Shown here one piece after another: positions 3,380 through 41,546 of a DNA stretch of 64,000 nt. Position 1 is the stretch's first letter; every line of letters begins with the position of its first letter. A program made the position numbers and the translations under genes. Source of the stretch: Callorhinchus milii (lineage: Eukaryota); the NCBI RefSeq assembly GCF_018977255.1, contig NW_024704744.1:56296001-56360000 (forward strand). Direction: 5' to 3'. The notes below the pieces were generated by a model that was given only the letters and a program-made list of their open reading frames with translations, was not told the DNA's origin and did no database searches.

Positions 3380-3654
3380 CTGTAATGATGAGAATACAAG
3401 AGTTAGGATGTAATTTCAGATGATAATTCAGTTTATTATATAATTGCTCTTTAATACCCACTTTAATTATTCTAGGAAAAAGGATCTTTAAACAGTACTG
3501 ATGTATGAACAGACATCTTACAGCAGGTTAGCAAATAACAAATCAGAGAGACACAGAGCACACTTGTGTCCAACAATTGCTCATCACTCAACTCCACTCG
3601 ACCTTCCATAAACTTTGAAATGAATGGCTAGCTATGATTTGAAATTATTGTCTA

Positions 3655-5009: not shown

Positions 5010-5166
5010 AAGCAGCTTCTGTTTGTATGCTATAATTTTCTTCCAGAAGGCAGATTCTTGGACATCAGGCTCGTCTGTTTTTTGTGCATGTCGCTGCTTC
5101 TTTTTCTGTTGCGGTTTTTGCTCTGGAACTTTTTCTTCCTTTTCTTCTTTTTCTCCATCTTCTCCA
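5010..5166 (-). CDS. RYR2: RYR2 exon ~92 (157 nt) DGEDGEKEEKEEK...ESAFWKKIIAYKQKLL
   Basis: cag/GTGAGT; lies within ORF 4977-5279. Confidence 0.93.
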
Positions 5167-5601
5167 CTGCAATGCAGATAAGACAATGTTTCCCACAGGG
5201 TAGAAATAAAGCATCCACTTCCCAAAGTGACAATAGCGATGCATGGTGCGCGAAATGAGCAAAGTGCAGGAAGTGACATCAGTGGTGACTTGATGATCTG
5301 TCCTCAGTGTGGGCAGCTGCCTGTCAGCACCGGAAACTGGGTCCACTGGAGAAGCAGCGCTCTTTGGAAGGTGATGCAATGGGCTTCTCTTGTATGTTAG
5401 TTAGTGAAATGGCATTTTACAATAATAAAAGTATTCCTGTGAAGTACTGTAATGCTTGTGGATTTTTTCCTAAATCTGTGCATGTGAGCTAAAATTGTGC
5501 AGAAACAGTCAACCCATAAAAGCTCGGGCAGAATCGTGGGCCAGACAGCATTCCAGATACTAATCCTATTTCTTAAAATCCCAATTCTTCACAGTACTCA
5601 C

Positions 5602-6070: not shown

Positions 6071-7376
6071 CTGAGGTTCAGTCTGGAGTTCTGGAAGTGG
6101 CTCACTAGTAGCCTGAGGGCTTATTAGATCAGACATGCCAGCATTTGGATCATGTGGTATGAGCTTATATTGGCCTCCTTCACGCCGTAGGTCCAAACCA
6201 AAGATATCGGACAGGACATCAGTCTCCTCAGTGACGGCTGTCAGATCAGTTAAGTCTTCTGAGGCAGTGCTGATGGGGCAACTTTCCCTTCTCCTTCTCC
6301 AACCTCACCATCGACGTCATCGTGAGTTGGGTCTGGCATGTTGGCCAGCAGCTCCGTCACTTTGATCTTCTTAGCTCCTTCCACAAGACTTCCTCCCAAC
6401 AAAGTGCTGTACATGATACGAAGGAATCCACGAAAAACGCTGAATACAAAGTGGAAGAGTCCGACCAGCAAGCTCCAGTAGAAAGAGAAGAGAGCCATAA
6501 TCAGGTCCTTCACTGTCATCTTTTTCATTTTCTTCACCTGCTTTTTGAGGCTTTTAGTTGTGAACATCTTCATGAGGATCATCACGTTAGACCTCAAGGC
6601 CATCAGAGCAGTCCGAACTGTCGTCAAGGTAAAAAAGCCCATTTTGGGGTCTTCTTCCTCCAATTTGTCCTTCTGGGTGTCCTCTTTGCTCACAGACCTC
6701 TCAGTGGAGTCTGACTCGGAGATTTGAGCTGCCAGCTGCATCTCAAAGATAGTGTCCTCACAGAAGTTCACAAAGAGTTCCATCTTTTCTTTCTCTCCCC
6801 CCTCATTCACCACGTCAAAGATGAATTGTCTCTTTGACTCCTTCACTTGCGGCTTCTCCCATTGGGTTCTGCTGGACTCGCTGATCTCAAAATAAACCCT
6901 CTCGATGCGCTTGGCACTCCCCATGATTTCTATGCGGCCCAGGTACGGTTGAAAATAATTGAGCACACTCTCTGCCAGTTCCAGAAATGTCTGCAGCCGG
7001 GTGTCGTGAGGCATGTGCTCCGACAGGTTTGTCAGCAGAACAGCCACATTGAAACCAATGTCCTTGGCAGGTTCGTGAAACCGTTCAACAAACTCCTCAT
7101 AATCTAGCATCTCATTCTCATCAGTCTCAGCACAAGAGAGCAGGAAATCAGTTTCGGACTGAGTGTAATGTTTATGACTCTCCATAGCCTTCTGAAAGTC
7201 CCTCTTTGAGATCACACCTTTAGTATCAGGGTCATATTCTTTGAATGTATCAGATGTGGTTAGATCCTTTAGTTTAAGGAACATATCAAAGAATTTGAGG
7301 ATCATTTCTACGTTGTTTGAGGATTCCACCAACATGTCAACCATCTGCTTGCCAATTGTTCCATTAACCACATTTC
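6071..7376 (-). CDS. RYR2: RYR2 exon ~90 (1306 nt as given; EF hands, thumb-and-forefinger, start of divergent region 1) with an apparent 1-nt deletion at ~6263
   Basis: tag/GTGACA; ORF 6250-7401 plus continuation ORF 5999-6196 in another frame. Confidence 0.95.
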
Positions 7377-34371: not shown

Positions 34372-36056
34372 CTGAAGACAAGATACATGAATGACATTCA
34401 GAACAAATTTATTAGCTTTGTTCATTATAGCCCACAACCAGCATAATGTTGTGTTACATCCAGCATAATGTTAAACTAGTTAGGCAAATGAAATGTTGCT
34501 ATGTGGAGCTGAGCTATAGCCTTGTCAGAGTCCCTGCTATCTGCTTTAATAATATCTCATATAATTTCTTACCTCAGGGAAGCATCTTATCTGCCTCAAC
34601 CTGATTTGGGCCTTTTTAATAATAAAATGGCAATTTTTTAACACCAGAATAGATTGGCTACGAGGCTCAAGTTTAAATTTATGTTAATACATGCATGTGT
34701 TTATCATTTCCACATTCATTTTTATAAGAACGTTGTTCAGCATAGAAACTTTCAACCCGTCTTACCTTTTAGTTTGGTCAGCCGGGTGCCTGAAACAGAA
34801 ATCCATCACCACGTTTACGAGTACCCAAACCACACAGAGTTCCATGCATGGTACATGCATGGAAATTCCTGTGTAATGGAGTGTGCACTCTCTCCCAAGA
34901 GGGACACCCTCTGCTTACCTAATTCCAGAGAGTATGAGGCACAGGTTGGCAAGTTGGGGTACTAGTGGAATTATCCAGCTAAAACCACATAACTTGCTAT
35001 TGAGAGCACTGGCTGGTAAGCTTCCTGCTAATTGTCCAACTGGGTCCACCTGCCCATGAGGGCTTTGGCTTGCAGAATTAACAGGAACAGAGTGGGAAGA
35101 ATCCCTGCCCACTGACTAATCTGACCCTCCAAGTCCTACCGATGAGCCAGGTTGGTTGTTTTGTCATCAGCAGTGCCCTGGAGTACCACAGACCCACTTG
35201 GCTCAGGAACCAAACTACCAAGACCACCACAGAGGGTTGAATCAATGATTCTCTGTCCTTAAGATAGGTCTTAAGACAAGTTTTACAGGTGGAGAGGAAG
35301 GTACAGCAAATTAGAGGCATTCCACAATGGAGTTCAAGAGAGCGAAGACAGAATGGTTGAAAGGTCACCTGTCGATGGTGGAATGGATCAAACGGAGGAC
35401 GTGAAGCAGGCCAGTATTTGGTGAGAGAAGGGAGGGGCCTGGAGGGGAGGTAGAATTGCAGATACTGTACTTCCAAATTTTTGTGTATTACAATTGGCCT
35501 CATAGAAAATGACATTCCTCCCAAAAATCATTCAGTTCACCATTAGATATCAGAATCAAAGAATTTGTGCCAATTTTTAAAGTTGCTACATTTAGAATAC
35601 TGTGTTTCTCATCCCATTCATGCTTCCTTGTCATTTTGTTTCTTGTTGAAACTTCAATGAAATGTGCTGGCTGTGATCTGCACACATTAGAGTTGTGACT
35701 ACCGAGGAAGAAGGCTGTCCTTTGTGGGGTATGGAAAACATTCTTTCTTGGTGCTTTGTTAGCAACGCTGCATATTTAGTGGCTGTGCTCAGGAGTACTA
35801 AGTACATATCACATTATAATTATACCACTAATAATCATTGCATTTGATATCGCACCTTTCACGTCAGGTCAACATGTCAAAGTGCTTCACAGGATTTTAC
35901 CGGAAAGCGCAGTTATTGTATTTTGAGACAACCAATTTGCATATGGCAATCTCCCCAAAACAGCCTTGAAGTGAATAACTGATTATTGGTCAATGTACAC
36001 GGCTGATTTCTAACTGCTAATGTGAGGCTGAGGAAGGAAAACTATGGAGTTCATAC

Positions 36057-36169: not shown

Positions 36170-37156
36170 CTAAACCAAGGAATATGGATGGAACAGACAG
36201 CTTTATCGTTGTAATTCTTGTGAGTTTCTTTTGACTGAAAATCCAATCATTTGAAATGTGAATTTCCCCCTCCTCTCTCGCAGTGCTGAATCATGTTAGA
36301 ATAGTCTTTCATGGATGCTGACTGCCCTCTGATAGCTTGTTCAAATGGTCATTATTCCTCTGCGAGCCTCAACATTGCGTGTTGAGCTACTTGACATGAG
36401 GAAGACATTAGCTGTGATTCCAATTCCAGCCACAGTTCACGGACACACATACACTTTCTTGCAAGATTTCTAGATAGAGATGAAGAGTAGGAACACTGGT
36501 GGATTTTCCCTTCCCTATCCCACGGCTTGAAGGTCGGTTATCAAATTCCCCTTATGACTGATCCAGCTGAAATTAGCTAACTCTGTACGGTATATTAAAC
36601 AAACTGGGACATCCTGACCCAATGGCATTAACCAACTGAGTCACCAAGGCGATCCCATCTGCAGATATTGCCTAATTCAGGAGGTGTATTTAGCCCATTA
36701 AAATCAGACTGAGTCCACATAAGACAATGAACTCTGAGATTACCATCAAAAGGCTCAAAGCTAGAATTCACAATGCATATTTGGCTCATATCTTTAGTTT
36801 AACTCTGCACTGAATCTCCATTGGAAATTTAGCTTCTTAATTTTAATTAAACAAACTGTTTAATTTTCCTAAAGTACTTCCTTTAGATTAACAATTATCT
36901 ATTTTTCTACTGACGTTAAGCCCTGTATTACTGCTGCACTAGCATATCTGACTAAAATTAGAGAAAGAACAAGTGAGTATGAATTAAACTCTCTCTTGAC
37001 TTAAAGGAACCTCACAATTCCAATTCCCCAGTAACTCAGAGAAGGACAACAAAACAAGACAGTGTAACTGAAGTCGAGAAGCATGTGGCTCTGGGAAGAG
37101 AGTGGATTTGAGAATGTGGTGAGAAGTCAAGTAGCTGGGGTTACGATACATTAAAT

Positions 37157-38005
37157 AACAACAACAAAATTACATTTTTTTAAAGCGCCTTTCATATCAG
37201 GAGGGCGTCCCAAGGCGCTGGATAGACAGAGTTACGGACCCGAGGGTCCTGGGTGGGGGGAGGGCAGAGGGGGAAGCAAGGAGATCGAAAGCATGGTCGA
37301 AGAGGAGGGTCTTCAGGTGGGTCTTGAAGGTGGCAAGGGAGGGGGCAAGAGGGAGGAACTGCGGGATGGAGTTCCAGAGAGTTGGTGCAGAGTGGCGGAA
37401 GGCCCACCTGCCGATAGTGGGACAAGCAAGGCGGGGGACGTGAAGCAGGCCGGAGCCCGCTGAGCGGAGGGAGCGAACAGGGTGTTAGGGGGATAGGAGG
37501 TCGGAGAGGTAGAGGGGAGCAAGACCGTGGAGGACTTTGAAGGTGAGGACCAGGATCTTGAACTGTATACTCTGTGTGATAGGAAGTCAGTGGAGTTGGG
37601 TGAGGATGGGAGTGATAGGGTCGCGGAGCCTAGTGCGGGAGAGGACACAGGCTGCAGAGTTCTGGATGATCTGCAGCCTGTGGAGGGAGGAGTTGGGGAG
37701 GCCGACAAGCACTGAGTTTGCATAGTCGAGCCTCGATGTAATGAAGGCATGTATGAGGGTTTCAGCGGCCTGCGGTGTGAGACAGTGGTGGAGCCGGGCG
37801 ATGGTACAGAGGTGGGGGAAGGCAGAACGGGTCATGGCGCAGATGTGGGGTAGAAAAGATAGTTGAGGGTCAAACAAGACGCCAAGGTTCTGGACTGGCT
37901 TAGTAAGGTGGAGTGTGCAACCATGGACGGTGATGCTGTCAGCACCTGAGGTGTGGAGGCGCTGACGGGAGCCAATCAGGAGGGCCTCGGTCTTGTTGAC
38001 GTTCA
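37157..38005 (-). mobile_element. 5'-truncated L2 LINE, same family as 21686-24830
   Basis: ORF 37587-38006 NKTEALLIG...NLGVLFD...[15 protein letters not shown], near-identical to 22022-22440. Confidence 0.92.
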
Positions 38006-38090
38006 AATGAAGAAATAAGCTTCAACTTGTTGAATGTAATGACCTTCTCCAATCCTATGAATATATATTCTCAAAGTAAAGAACACTAAC

Positions 38091-38225
38091 CTGTTCCAAG
38101 TGAAAAACTACATTGGAAATATCTAGCACTCGCTCCACTGTTTTCCCAGGATCGGACGAGTCTTCACTTCTGTTCGGCAGGTCTTTATATAGAGCCATCT
38201 GCCACCTAATGGCAGGATCTTCCAA
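38091..38225 (-). CDS. RYR2: RYR2 exon ~74 (135 nt) LEDPAIRWQMALYKDLPNRSEDSSDPGKTVERVLDISNVVFHLEQ
   Basis: cag/GTTAGT; peptide match. Confidence 0.95.
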
Positions 38226-38945
38226 CTGCAGGTTGGGATTCGTATTAGTTATCAGTCAACAGGATCCACAAGATACCATAAATTACTTATCAGATGACAT
38301 AATAAATGCTGACTTTTAGCTCTACTCTGCTTAAAGTTGCACCTCTAAATCGACAACCAATACATGTTTTCAGCCTTGCACTAACTCACCCTTTTGAGGT
38401 TAATGTCCAGGCATCTCAGAAGTTTGTACAATTTAAATCTGGGATTGTAGATCAGAATGGTAGGAGGGAATAGATAGCTTTGCTTTTGAATTAAGGGCAC
38501 TGAAAATTGCTGATGACATTATGTACTACTGTCTACAATGTAGAGTGGTGAATTCCTTGGAATATCTGTTCAGACTGTAATTTACTCCCATCTATCCACC
38601 TCTTCGATCATGCTTATAGTCACCTCACTCTCTCTCCAGGTTAGTGTCAAGCTCGACCACTGTTAAGTGCTCCAAGATGCTGCCCCACATGAAGGACACT
38701 GTATGAATGCAAGTTGTTGTTGTTTACTTCAAGGATTCAGGTGACATTTTAGGAGTTAAGTGAATTTGTTTTAATGTTACTTTCAATAAAACTTTTAATA
38801 AGTGTTAATGATTTAAGACTTTACAGAGAATGATACGTCACAGAAACAGACCAATCGGCCCAACTTGCCTGTGTCGGAATTTGATTATAGCAAGATATAT
38901 TCTTTTTTCATGCATTTATTCATTCAACAAAGCAGCCACAGGAAT

Positions 38946-39365
38946 CAACAACAACAAAATTACATTTGTATAGCGTCTTTTATGTCGGGAGGACATCCCA
39001 AGGCGCTGGATAATCAGTGTTTCGGACCCGAGCTGGGGGTCGGGATCAGGGAGGGTGGAGGGTGACCGAAGGCACAGTCGAAGAGAAGGGTCTTGAGACA
39101 TGTCTTGAAGACGGCAAGGGAGGGGACGAGGTGGAGGGACTGCGGGGTGGAGTTCCAGAGGATGGGGACAGCGTGGCTGAAGACCCGCCCACCAATGGTG
39201 GGGTGGGCCAGGAAGGGTATGTGAAGCATGCTGGAGCCCGCTGAGTGGAAGGTGCGGGCAGGTTGGTCGGGGGTTAGGCGGTCGCAGAGGTAGGGGGCAG
39301 CAAGGCAATGGAGGTGAGGACCAGGATCTTCAACTGTATGCTCTGTGTGATGGGAAGCCAGTGAA
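38946..39365 (-). mobile_element. L2 3' fragment
   Basis: GGRVFSHAVPILWNSTP...FKTCLKTLLF peptide plus tail. Confidence 0.85.
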
Positions 39366-40433
39366 GTCAGTCAATCAAACCTGGATCAACAGCATACTGG
39401 CCGAGAACAAGAGCAAGGGCAAGAGTCACAAACAAAAATTGCACAATCAGTATACACCATGAGAAGGGCTCTTATGCAATTTTGAAAGATGTACATTACA
39501 GTTATAATGTACCTCTCTAGGGCATGGGTGCCCTTCTAATGTGGATGTCCTGCGGATCCACAGTTACCACATGTAGGATGCACTTCAGACTTTCAACATG
39601 GATTAGTTGGCTTCCCACATTAATAAATTCCAACTTCCAGAACATCAGGTTGCTGCCAATGCCACTTCTTGCACTCTGCAAATGTGAACTATACACAGCA
39701 ATCATTTTGCATTGGCATCCCTTTATGAAGGCAGCAACTGCAGAAGCACTTCTTGTAATGTTATGCACAATTGATGGGAAGTCACATCAGTAGCGATCTG
39801 ACGACCTGAAAATCAGCCATTTTTTCATGCTCTGTTACAATGTGTCTGCTGAAATACTGGACCCAGATGACCACGTTTCAATGGGCCTGCTTTGTGTTTG
39901 TAAGTAAGTTAGAATTGAAGCACAAACTGTATTGGAATGACAGGCATTAAGGCTGCAGAAAGGCAACTGATCTATCTGGAATACTGAAAATGCAATCTTT
40001 TGACAGCCTGCATCAGCTTAAGACAATTAGGAGAAGGGATCTAGTAACTAAACTAAAGTTCCACTATTGTATTGAAATCTATTTGCGTACAATAAAATAC
40101 AAAACAAGCAGAAAAAGAAAGTTTCCCATCGTATATGTGCATTCTTATTTATTCTTTTAAAGATTGATAGCTCTTGAAGCAGCGTAGATTGATCAAACGC
40201 TTCAGGATAGTTATGCCATTTATCAATCTACAGAGTTTGAGCTGTGAACGACAATTGTGAAAATGCTCAAAATGTTAAAATATCAATTACGAAAGCACCT
40301 TTTGCTAAAATGATTTTCTCTAAACACAAGGAATAAGCGCAATTCTATCCCATACCAAAATCAAAACAATACAGAATCATCATACGATGGGTATCCTCTT
40401 GCTTCAAAACCACAGCAAGTTATTCAGACTTAC

Positions 40434-40685
40434 ATGACCACTCTGCATATCTAGAAACAGGCTGTTACACCCAAGCAAACCATGCACGGTTGTAGTCCCA
40501 TCCTCTTTCAGGCCTTTCCTGGGCTTACTAACCATCAGCTCAAATGGCCTTGACAGGACCTTTGAGTGTTGCGCCACAGACACATGGTGAATTGAAGAGG
40601 ATTTTTTAAGTGCCAAAACAATCTTGTGATTTTTTGATCTTGTAAGTGTAGAGAAGAGGAGTTTTTTGAACTCTGGGAATAATGT
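40434..40685 (-). CDS. RYR2: Candidate alternative cassette exon in intron 73 (252 nt, 84 aa, phase 0-0); a longer 421-nt form would start at 40854
   Basis: ctctgttattctag acceptor, stop-free frame TLFPEFKK...DMQSGH, CAT|GTAAGT donor in phase; no homology that I recognise. Confidence 0.35.
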
Positions 40686-40865
40686 CTAGAATAACAGAGT
40701 GTTTTTGCACGGTCAATTTTTTATGGCTGTAAGTGCCTGAAAAATCTGAGCCAGAGTTATTGGGCCTGGAAGCGGATTTGGGTGGTCTGTTCTTCATCCA
40801 TTTCATAATTATGATGAGTCTCTTCACCAGTTTCTTGAAATGAAATACTCGATACTGATAGACGG

Positions 40866-40879
40866 CATGCAGGCATGCA
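40866..40879 (-). promoter_or_regulatory. Tandem Rbfox-type UGCAUG motifs
   Basis: TGCATG twice on the transcribed strand (40874-40879 and 40866-40871), in the tract just upstream of a candidate acceptor at 40855 and ~170 nt downstream of exon 73. Confidence 0.45.
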
Positions 40880-41047
40880 AGGAAAGAGACACAGACATGT
40901 GTGAAATGAACAGGTACAAGATCTCAGAAGAGCGACAACGCTGAACAGAATTCATGCTTCAACATAGCAGTGCAATTTATAGAAAGCAGTTACCATCCAC
41001 TCTAAAAACAACATAAATTGTTTAACACTTGGACACCATCAACCTAC

Positions 41048-41107
41048 TTTGCCCTGAAGATGAAGATTATTGCGAATTATTTCTCTAACTTCAGCCTCCG
41101 TGTCTTT
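41048..41107 (-). CDS. RYR2: RYR2 exon ~73 (60 nt) KDTEAEVREIIRNNLHLQGK
   Basis: cag/GTAGGT; peptide match. Confidence 0.95.
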
Positions 41108-41546
41108 CTGCGTCAAAGGGGGGGAAAAGTTAAGTTTCAGAAAACTATCTCCAAGAGAATTACAAAATTTCTACCCACTTAAGCTCTCGCACTTTAACAG
41201 TCAAGTGATAATAAAAGTGCTAACATAAAGGGCAAAATTTTGTTTCTCAATGGAATCTTGAAATTGTTTTTCGCAAAAATCACTGTATCATTTGGAGTCA
41301 CTCAGATCTAGCCGTTGCTGACGTCAAGGCTAACAGAACAACTGTCTGGAATGGTACGGCACGGAAAGAAATCAATCAGCCCAACTAGAGTCTTTCTCAT
41401 ACAAACACACACCATCATGTACAATTGTGTCTTTGCATGAGAAAGAAACCTGGGCAAATAACATCTAAAGAATGGTATACAGCACTCCAAGACATTACTC
41501 CATGTGAAGGGGGCTGTATAAATGCAAGTTGTGTTGTTGTACCTAC

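Follow-up and report, generated by a model that had tools for sequence, protein, structure and literature searches.

A Candidate 420-Nucleotide Cassette Exon Upstream of the Main Calmodulin-Binding Domain of RYR2 in Callorhinchus milii

Gene Setting

The window analyzed here is a stretch of 64,000 nucleotides (nt) from Callorhinchus milii (contig NW_024704744.1, forward-strand positions 56,296,001 to 56,360,000). A total of 31 exons of a ryanodine receptor gene were located on its - strand by tblastn of five homologs and by splice sites. Two of these exons, 41107-41048 and 38225-38091, both of phase 0, are separated by a 2.8-kb intron. This intron contains a further candidate exon (40854-40434, - strand), which is very probably a real coding exon and is the subject of this report.

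The flanking exons are nearest to RyR2, and not to RyR1 or RyR3, which identifies the gene as RYR2. The downstream constitutive exon (38091-38225, - strand) has 45 codons, and its best match is human RyR2 3519-3563 (expect value (E) 3e-20, with 1e-10 for RyR1 and 4.5e-7 for RyR3). The upstream constitutive exon (41048-41107, - strand) has 60 nt, is in phase 0 at both ends, and encodes a product that ends in LHLQGK. It was identified by tblastn of RYR2 homologs, splice sites, and a spliced contig of the read run X3. In human numbering, the insertion site is the junction of residues 3518/3519. The earlier note on this DNA had used the name intron 73, which appears to agree with human numbering. 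In a tree built from 1,478 columns, with an RYR1-like locus as its root, the RYR2 of the window branches outside of the teleosts and tetrapods, with a weak support of 70. This position would be consistent with a cartilaginous fish.

Exon Structure and Splice Sites

The candidate exon is 421 nt in the letters of the window and 420 nt in sequencing reads. The latter length gives 140 codons with no stop, and homologs of the product were found. The donor is a strong GTAAGT (40428-40433, - strand, phase 0), and its score of 8.1 bits ranks in the top 1% when compared with 3,656 other GTs. For the acceptor, a weak CAG (40855-40857, - strand, phase 0), the score is 1.5 bits, a value reached by 25% of 3,961 other AGs. 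These scores come from a matrix made from the window’s own 31 exons, whose boundaries are heuristic and wrong in a few cases. Phase 0 was found at all four sites, the AG and GT of the exon and those of the flanking exons, as is expected of a cassette. Stop-free, in-phase stretches back to an acceptor were compared for 98 GTRAG donors outside of the tblastn exon list, and that of the donor at 40434 was the second longest. The longest, at donor 5010, overlaps an RYR2 coding match.

The basic features listed in the earlier note are present. These are a CAT/GTAAGT donor at 40434/40433, 252 nt and 84 stop-free codons in 40685-40434 of the window letters, 82 stop-free codons in 40854-40609, a length of 421 nt for 40854-40434, and two copies of TGCATG at 40879 and 40871. 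A basic, Ser-rich composition was also proposed, and it was found in the 140 residues (26 K+R, 6 D+E, and 26 S+T). The exon was said to lie about 45 amino acids (aa) before the calmodulin-binding domain. It does lie upstream, but by 50 residues in this gene, or by 62 in human numbering, where CaMBD2 is R3581-P3607 (PMC6340113, in its accessible part).

One proposal was not supported, a 252-nt exon that starts at acceptor 40685 and encodes the basic, Ser-rich insert. It would lose codons 1-21, which are the best conserved. This acceptor has a low score of -0.2 bits, which 37% of 3,961 other AGs reach, and it is in frame solely through an extra base at 40654. The read-supported letters give a frame-shifted exon of 251 nt. 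A poison exon, or this shorter exon, that lowers RYR2 by nonsense-mediated decay is highly improbable. The 421-nt form in the letters of the window does shift the frame, as would the 251-nt form in the read-supported letters. However, the full exon supported by reads keeps the frame and has no premature stop, amino-acid conservation with conservative changes is unexpected of a poison exon, and the score of acceptor 40685 is low.

Two other boundaries were tried. An inner donor at 40533 keeps the frame (321 nt) and could be a minor donor. It was rejected as the main donor since it removes a Gly-Cys motif that is common to three of the four homologs. An upstream exon extended to a donor-like site at 40994 runs into an in-frame stop.

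The Extra Base at 40654

Read contigs of four runs were aligned to 38050-41150, with X1 taken from study P1 and X4 from study P2. Position 40654 is covered by X1 and X4 only, and both are without one base of the TT dinucleotide that the - strand of the window has there. This base is omitted at a depth of 4.3/4.3 in X1 and 10.7/10.7 in X4. A single contig at a depth below 5 might be erroneous, yet the two studies concur. With the base removed, the exon is 420 nt and encodes 140 codons with 0 stops and an isoelectric point of 10.8. A length that is a multiple of three, with no stop, was therefore found in the reads of both covering runs and not in the letters of the window.

The suggestion that a one-base error hides a 420-nt exon is thus supported by the reads and also by the similarity to four homologs, which switches frame at 40654. 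The error was expected in a homopolymer (A6) run, and in this the suggestion was mistaken; the position sits in a TT dinucleotide. The extra base is either an assembly error or a rare allele. An error is favored because a second frame change is found near 6262, inside an essential exon. X4 differs from the window elsewhere too and is probably from another individual.

Homologs and Coding Conservation

A query with the flanking exon returned 25 proteins, including KAJ8365606.1 (P0017) from the cutthroat eel Synaphobranchus kaupii. The sequence of P0017 ahead of LEDPAIRW is unrelated, and over residues 6-65 this protein aligns with 40860-40654 (41% identity; E 5e-12 for a search of the window). 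In the eel gene model, the homolog of the exon is joined to the same downstream RYR2 exon, which begins with LEDPAIRW. The next motif of P0017, ALKKSSS, occurs in the second frame of the window. When 1.84 billion proteins were searched by phmmer with the first frame (40854-40609), three more matches were found, P0026-P0028 (E 1.4e-5 to 5.8e-4). These are unnamed open reading frames (ORFs) called from short contigs of Logan and ENA. The phmmer library contained one protein per 50% cluster, which could hide insert-bearing isoforms.

Alignment of the 140-aa form to the four homologs gives scores of 124-149, and the best of 500 shuffles reaches 53-58. All four are similar to the first frame before 40654 and to the second frame after it. 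The unused frames are at chance, with 18-23 for the first frame past the break and 17-21 for the second frame ahead of it. Conservation begins at a Gln/Tyr boundary in all four homologs, and this boundary is the CAG acceptor at 40855 in the window. In residues 1-21, the window shares 14-18 of 21 with each homolog, and the homologs share 12-17 of 21 among themselves. The exon is conserved across species as coding sequence at the protein level. When the second half was compared alone, the score was reached by 20 of 500 shuffles for P0017, 213 for P0026, 0 for P0027, and 18 for P0028. A 12-codon stretch (40614-40649, - strand) is private to this genome. It appears as a 12-residue gap in three of the four pairwise alignments and has short, low-copy similarity elsewhere in the genome. 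The depth of the bin 40546-40649 is 45 in X1 and 27 in X4, where the baseline is 10.7.

Other searches did not extend the family. The 84-aa frame gave 44 candidates among proteins of 148-2,000 aa, none with E<=1; the first 11 codons of this frame are out of the true frame. The eel insert gave 40 candidates among proteins of 2,723-5,000 aa, none with E<=0.1, and an insert-bearing RYR2 would exceed 5,000 aa. A metagenome scan with the exon alignment gave 0 relatives in 165 pattern matches, and a scan with the flanking exon gave one locus in 312, which is RYR1-like (L001). Among cluster members of eight RYR2 proteins, the exon was in 0 of 19 new proteins. The PDB sequences contained no credible match to the insert, and the ESM Atlas gave no usable match (best 0.82).

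It is very unlikely that the candidate exon is conserved for a reason other than coding, as a non-coding element, or is the remnant of a transposon, and is open in one frame by chance. No inclusion junction is among the matches listed from the runs, and the short, low-copy similarity elsewhere in the genome would also fit such an element. However, the similarity is frame-specific across three motif blocks. In the DNA run, the depth corresponds to a single copy at the exon (10.7) and is 10^4-10^5 over repeats of the same intron. A second copy of the exon was not found in the window, no Pfam family reached the cut-off for five proteins, and Rfam had 0 matches in the intron. The earlier note had allowed for a match to a transposable element. 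None was seen, either as high copy number or as a mobile family in Pfam; repeat libraries were not searched.

Skipping and Inclusion

No listed run is recorded as RNA, and X3 is mRNA-like by its behavior. Contig 17 of X3 (215 nt) covers 38088-38225, and its remaining 63 letters fit the depth over 41048-41107 (bins 0.97 and 2.83). From its length and these bins, contig 17 appears to be the skip junction 41048>38225. Of 47 proteins, 21 are spliced before LEDP. A total of 18 join HLQGK directly to LEDP, two rodent models join from one exon earlier, and one, the eel, has the exon. The direct joiners come from salmonids, a cyprinid, birds, reptiles, and mammals. The exon can be considered optional because of the skipped form in X3 and because 18 of the 21 spliced homolog models join the flanks directly.

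The downstream inclusion junction was found only in the eel gene model. In this model, which is 1,555 aa long, the sequence begins seven residues ahead of the conserved block. The exon could thus be an alternative first exon with an internal promoter, which would give an N-terminally truncated RYR2 of ~1,550 aa that keeps the pore. An in-frame Met is present a short distance upstream in each of the three contig ORFs, and the donor-like site at 40994 (ATG/GTAACT, 6.4 bits) could give an in-phase Met. This alternative is quite unlikely, though. The window has no in-frame Met in the 23 codons from the last upstream stop to 40854, and the internal Met codons 17 and 20 fall past most of the best-conserved residues. 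Conservation starts at the Gln/Tyr boundary, where the window has CAG. A promoter signal rich in CpG is absent (observed/expected 0.28-0.66), and split RYR2 models are common among the matches.

Predicted Helix and Kinase-Type Motifs

Codons 1-21 (40792-40854, - strand) encode a conserved basic amphipathic helix with the anchors F6, L13, and W19. AlphaFold2, with a four-sequence alignment of the first 66 residues, predicted one helix at 2-21, with block values of 78 and 89 in the predicted local distance difference test, and no other structure. Residues 1-25 have a net charge of +7 or +8 in five of five sequences and a hydrophobic moment of 0.55-0.66. The spacing of the anchors is 1-8-14, which is one of the calmodulin-binding motif classes. 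The features of this class (basic, amphipathic, with spaced anchors) were found in all five sequences. A scan for the pattern gave 0 sites in four RYR2 proteins of 1,723-1,994 aa, and so it is rare. Calmodulin binding by the modeled helix is slightly favored.

Two more motif blocks follow. Block 2 (40684-40704, - strand) is KHSVILD here and RSATLD or RSSTLD in all four homologs. Block 3 (40593-40613, - strand) is ALKKSSS, basic residues and then a Ser run, with KKSSS, KKASS, KKAAS, and RKSSS in the homologs. By consensus, we take motif 2 of the homologs to be a CaMKII-type site and motif 3 to be a PKA-type site. Past the helix, the insert appears to be a disordered basic tail with kinase-type motifs.

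These blocks also bear on whether an ancestral exon is decaying in this lineage, where it would be rarely or never included and the base at 40654 would be a true null allele. Motif 2 is degraded, the 12-codon insertion is private, conservation is weak in the second half, and so is the acceptor. In addition, X4 is probably another individual, and no inclusion junction is among the matches listed. On the other hand, both covering runs keep the open frame, and the first 21 residues are as near to the homologs as the homologs are to each other. The donor is strong, and the second frame change near 6262 in an essential exon suggests that the assembly is probably prone to indels. Decay is therefore considered unlikely.

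Rbfox Motifs

The two TGCATG copies are of the Rbfox type, lie 8 nt apart, and are in the pyrimidine tract of the acceptor (40866-40879, - strand). A third copy is inside of the exon at 40486. The window has 19 sense copies of TGCATG, with two pairs within 30 nt, and no copy is within 40 nt of any of the 31 constitutive acceptors. UGCAUG close upstream of an acceptor is thus found at the candidate exon. The intron read-through of P0028 gives ACLHV where the window gives ACLHA over the motifs, which is only suggestive of a conserved motif. Rbfox that is bound upstream leads to exon skipping (PMC5840707, in its accessible part). Judging by these motifs, the chances that Rbfox represses the exon are about even.

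The only other close pair of TGCATG in the window (34859, 34848) is upstream of a possible microexon at 34766-34789 (- strand), and one copy is downstream of it (34695). The possible microexon has 24 nt, preserves the frame, and is in phase 2, with a CAG acceptor and a GTAAGA donor. It is directly after the exon of the main calmodulin-binding domain, and its start is similar to that of the exon that follows (34371). The junction is visible in 19 homolog proteins, and none of them has the microexon; in 18 the flanks are joined directly, and one diverges.

Comparison with Known Systems

None of the known alternative exons of ryanodine receptors (ASI, ASII, the 24/30-bp insertions, and exon 75) is at 3518/3519 or near 420 nt. 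These alternative exons of vertebrate ryanodine receptors add 5-12 residues and still change gating. ASI and ASII have 5-6 residues, and ASI is in the same protein region as the candidate exon. The human RYR2 24-bp and 30-bp insertions, reportedly described by George et al. in 2007, are presumably at other positions. We take mammalian RYR2 exon 75 to be 36 nt.

Exon 75 is the nearest known alternative exon, one intron downstream. The accessible sources describe it as an optional in-frame exon before the calmodulin-binding domain, as is the candidate. It differs in its intron, in its ~12 residues (a figure suggested by the numbering) versus 140 here, and in its GG donor versus the strong GT here. 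In the accessible parts of the two sources, exon 75 is skipped in islets (PMC12109991) and is QKI-dependent (bioRxiv 10.1101/2025.09.04.674271). The 24-bp and 30-bp insertions are also optional and alter channel location and Ca2+ release. They differ in having 8-10 residues and in being linked to RBM20/SRSF2 (PMC11263117, in part). In RYR1, ASI (exon 70) and ASII (exon 83) are developmentally switched exons that tune channel activity (PMC5840707, in part). RYR1 differs in that the RYR1-like locus L001 has about 116 nt between the two flanking exons, with no room for this exon.

The helix is like CaMBD1a, 1b, 2, and 3 of RyR2, which are basic amphipathic segments of 25-31 residues (PMC6340113, in part). 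Its hydrophobic moment is 0.55-0.66 versus 0.58 for the CaMBD2 exon. The helix differs from these domains in being optional, in having no sequence similarity to any solved chain, and in that its binding is predicted. KAJ8365606.1 has a homologous exon joined to the same downstream exon. It differs in its annotation, where the exon opens a split protein without a name and is not an RYR2 insert.

The exon is not mentioned in the accessible parts of three papers on fish RyR2 (PMC3262159, PMC9527923, and PMC13174225). The supplementary tables of PMC9770155, as far as accessible, have ryr2 at the gene level only. No publication on the exon was found. Annotated fish isoforms of more than 5,000 aa lay outside of the homolog searches and may carry it. 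The candidate is likely to be an ancient and large RYR2 cassette exon, masked by one extra base, and it is probably undescribed.

Proposed Function

The explanation that we favor, and consider likely, is that of an ancient, frame-preserving 420-nt RYR2 cassette exon that is present in this genome and in ray-finned fish and is usually skipped. It is quite likely that the exon is included in frame somewhere in this species. Skipping would be the default, and inclusion between 41048 and 38225 would occur in some tissue or stage. With the exon included, the late bridging solenoid would gain 140 residues at a point 50 residues ahead of the main calmodulin-binding domain. Residue 3519 is presumably in BSol3. 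In human RyR2, BSol3 is seen solely when it is stabilized by calmodulin (PMC9299551, in its accessible part). The most likely partner of the helix of residues 1-21 would be calmodulin, with an acidic channel surface as the alternative. The disordered basic tail could offer serine motifs of the PKA and CaMKII types. Because of the helix and the kinase-type tail, inclusion would retune the control of the channel by Ca2+/calmodulin and phosphorylation. The weak acceptor and the two copies of UGCAUG suggest that Rbfox proteins may block inclusion where they are abundant. On these sequence features, we favor an optional arm that would sense calmodulin and kinases.

A number of observations weigh against this explanation. 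The inclusion junctions 41048>40854 and 40434>38225 are not among the matches listed from the four runs. In the unique part of the intron, X3 has no cover save one 152-nt contig (40439-40590), entirely within the exon; this is a weak hint of inclusion, and a stray piece is expected there in about 1 in 6-7 cases. Unspliced pieces of X1 and X2 extend over the splice sites, and the flanking exons have no cover in either run. These pieces are therefore DNA or pre-mRNA. The eel model has the exon as its first exon. P0026-P0028 have no genomic context, and they are assumed to belong to RYR2 at this place. Conservation of the second half is weak (BLASTP to P0027, E 0.26). Motif 2 of this genome does not have the Arg and Thr of the homologs. 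The 1-8-14 scan misses the known CaMBD2 and CaMBD3 and so is without a positive control.

A broader proposal is possible and is made only tentatively. The ancestral RYR2 of jawed vertebrates may have had an undescribed optional 140-residue module, silenced by Rbfox, with an additional calmodulin-binding helix and PKA/CaMKII sites by CaMBD2. It would have been kept in cartilaginous and ray-finned fish, and it is missing from amniote gene models.

If it is included, the exon would be a natural, switchable probe of the action of calmodulin and kinases on the flexible late bridging solenoid. It bears on the difference between fish and endotherms in calcium-induced calcium release (PMC9527923, in part). 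A fish RyR2 isoform with different Ca2+/calmodulin gating could be a testable cause of calcium-induced calcium release being weak or plastic in the hearts of fish. Alternatively, it could be the basis for a neuronal form of RyR2. The exon also corrects what is probably an assembly indel and accounts for the split gene model of the eel. Its apparent absence from mammalian proteins limits its direct medical interest.

Other Observations at the Locus

The gene contains a large RYR2 exon (7376-6071, - strand) of 1,306 nt, in which tblastn shows a frame change near 6262 for four of five homologs. This is probably a second assembly indel. A divergent RYR2 coding stretch (5016-5297, - strand), matched by three of five homologs, has an open phase of 288 nt that leads up to the donor near 5010. 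L001 (1764-7127) is a compact RYR1-like locus from a metagenome collection, in which the equivalent intron is about 116 nt, and it is probably host DNA.

A single-letter difference is found in X3 at 38157, inside of the downstream exon, and could be an allele or an error. In 36170-38090, an X3 contig appears to continue past 38091 into other spliced sequence for 14 letters. The intron regions also contain two related remnants of a high-copy repeat, 37150-37990 and 38940-39400 (- strand), with a depth of up to 4x10^5 over the second. These presumably resemble the 3' ends of long interspersed nuclear elements. A second short high-copy repeat is present at 38647-38748, in the intron of the candidate exon.
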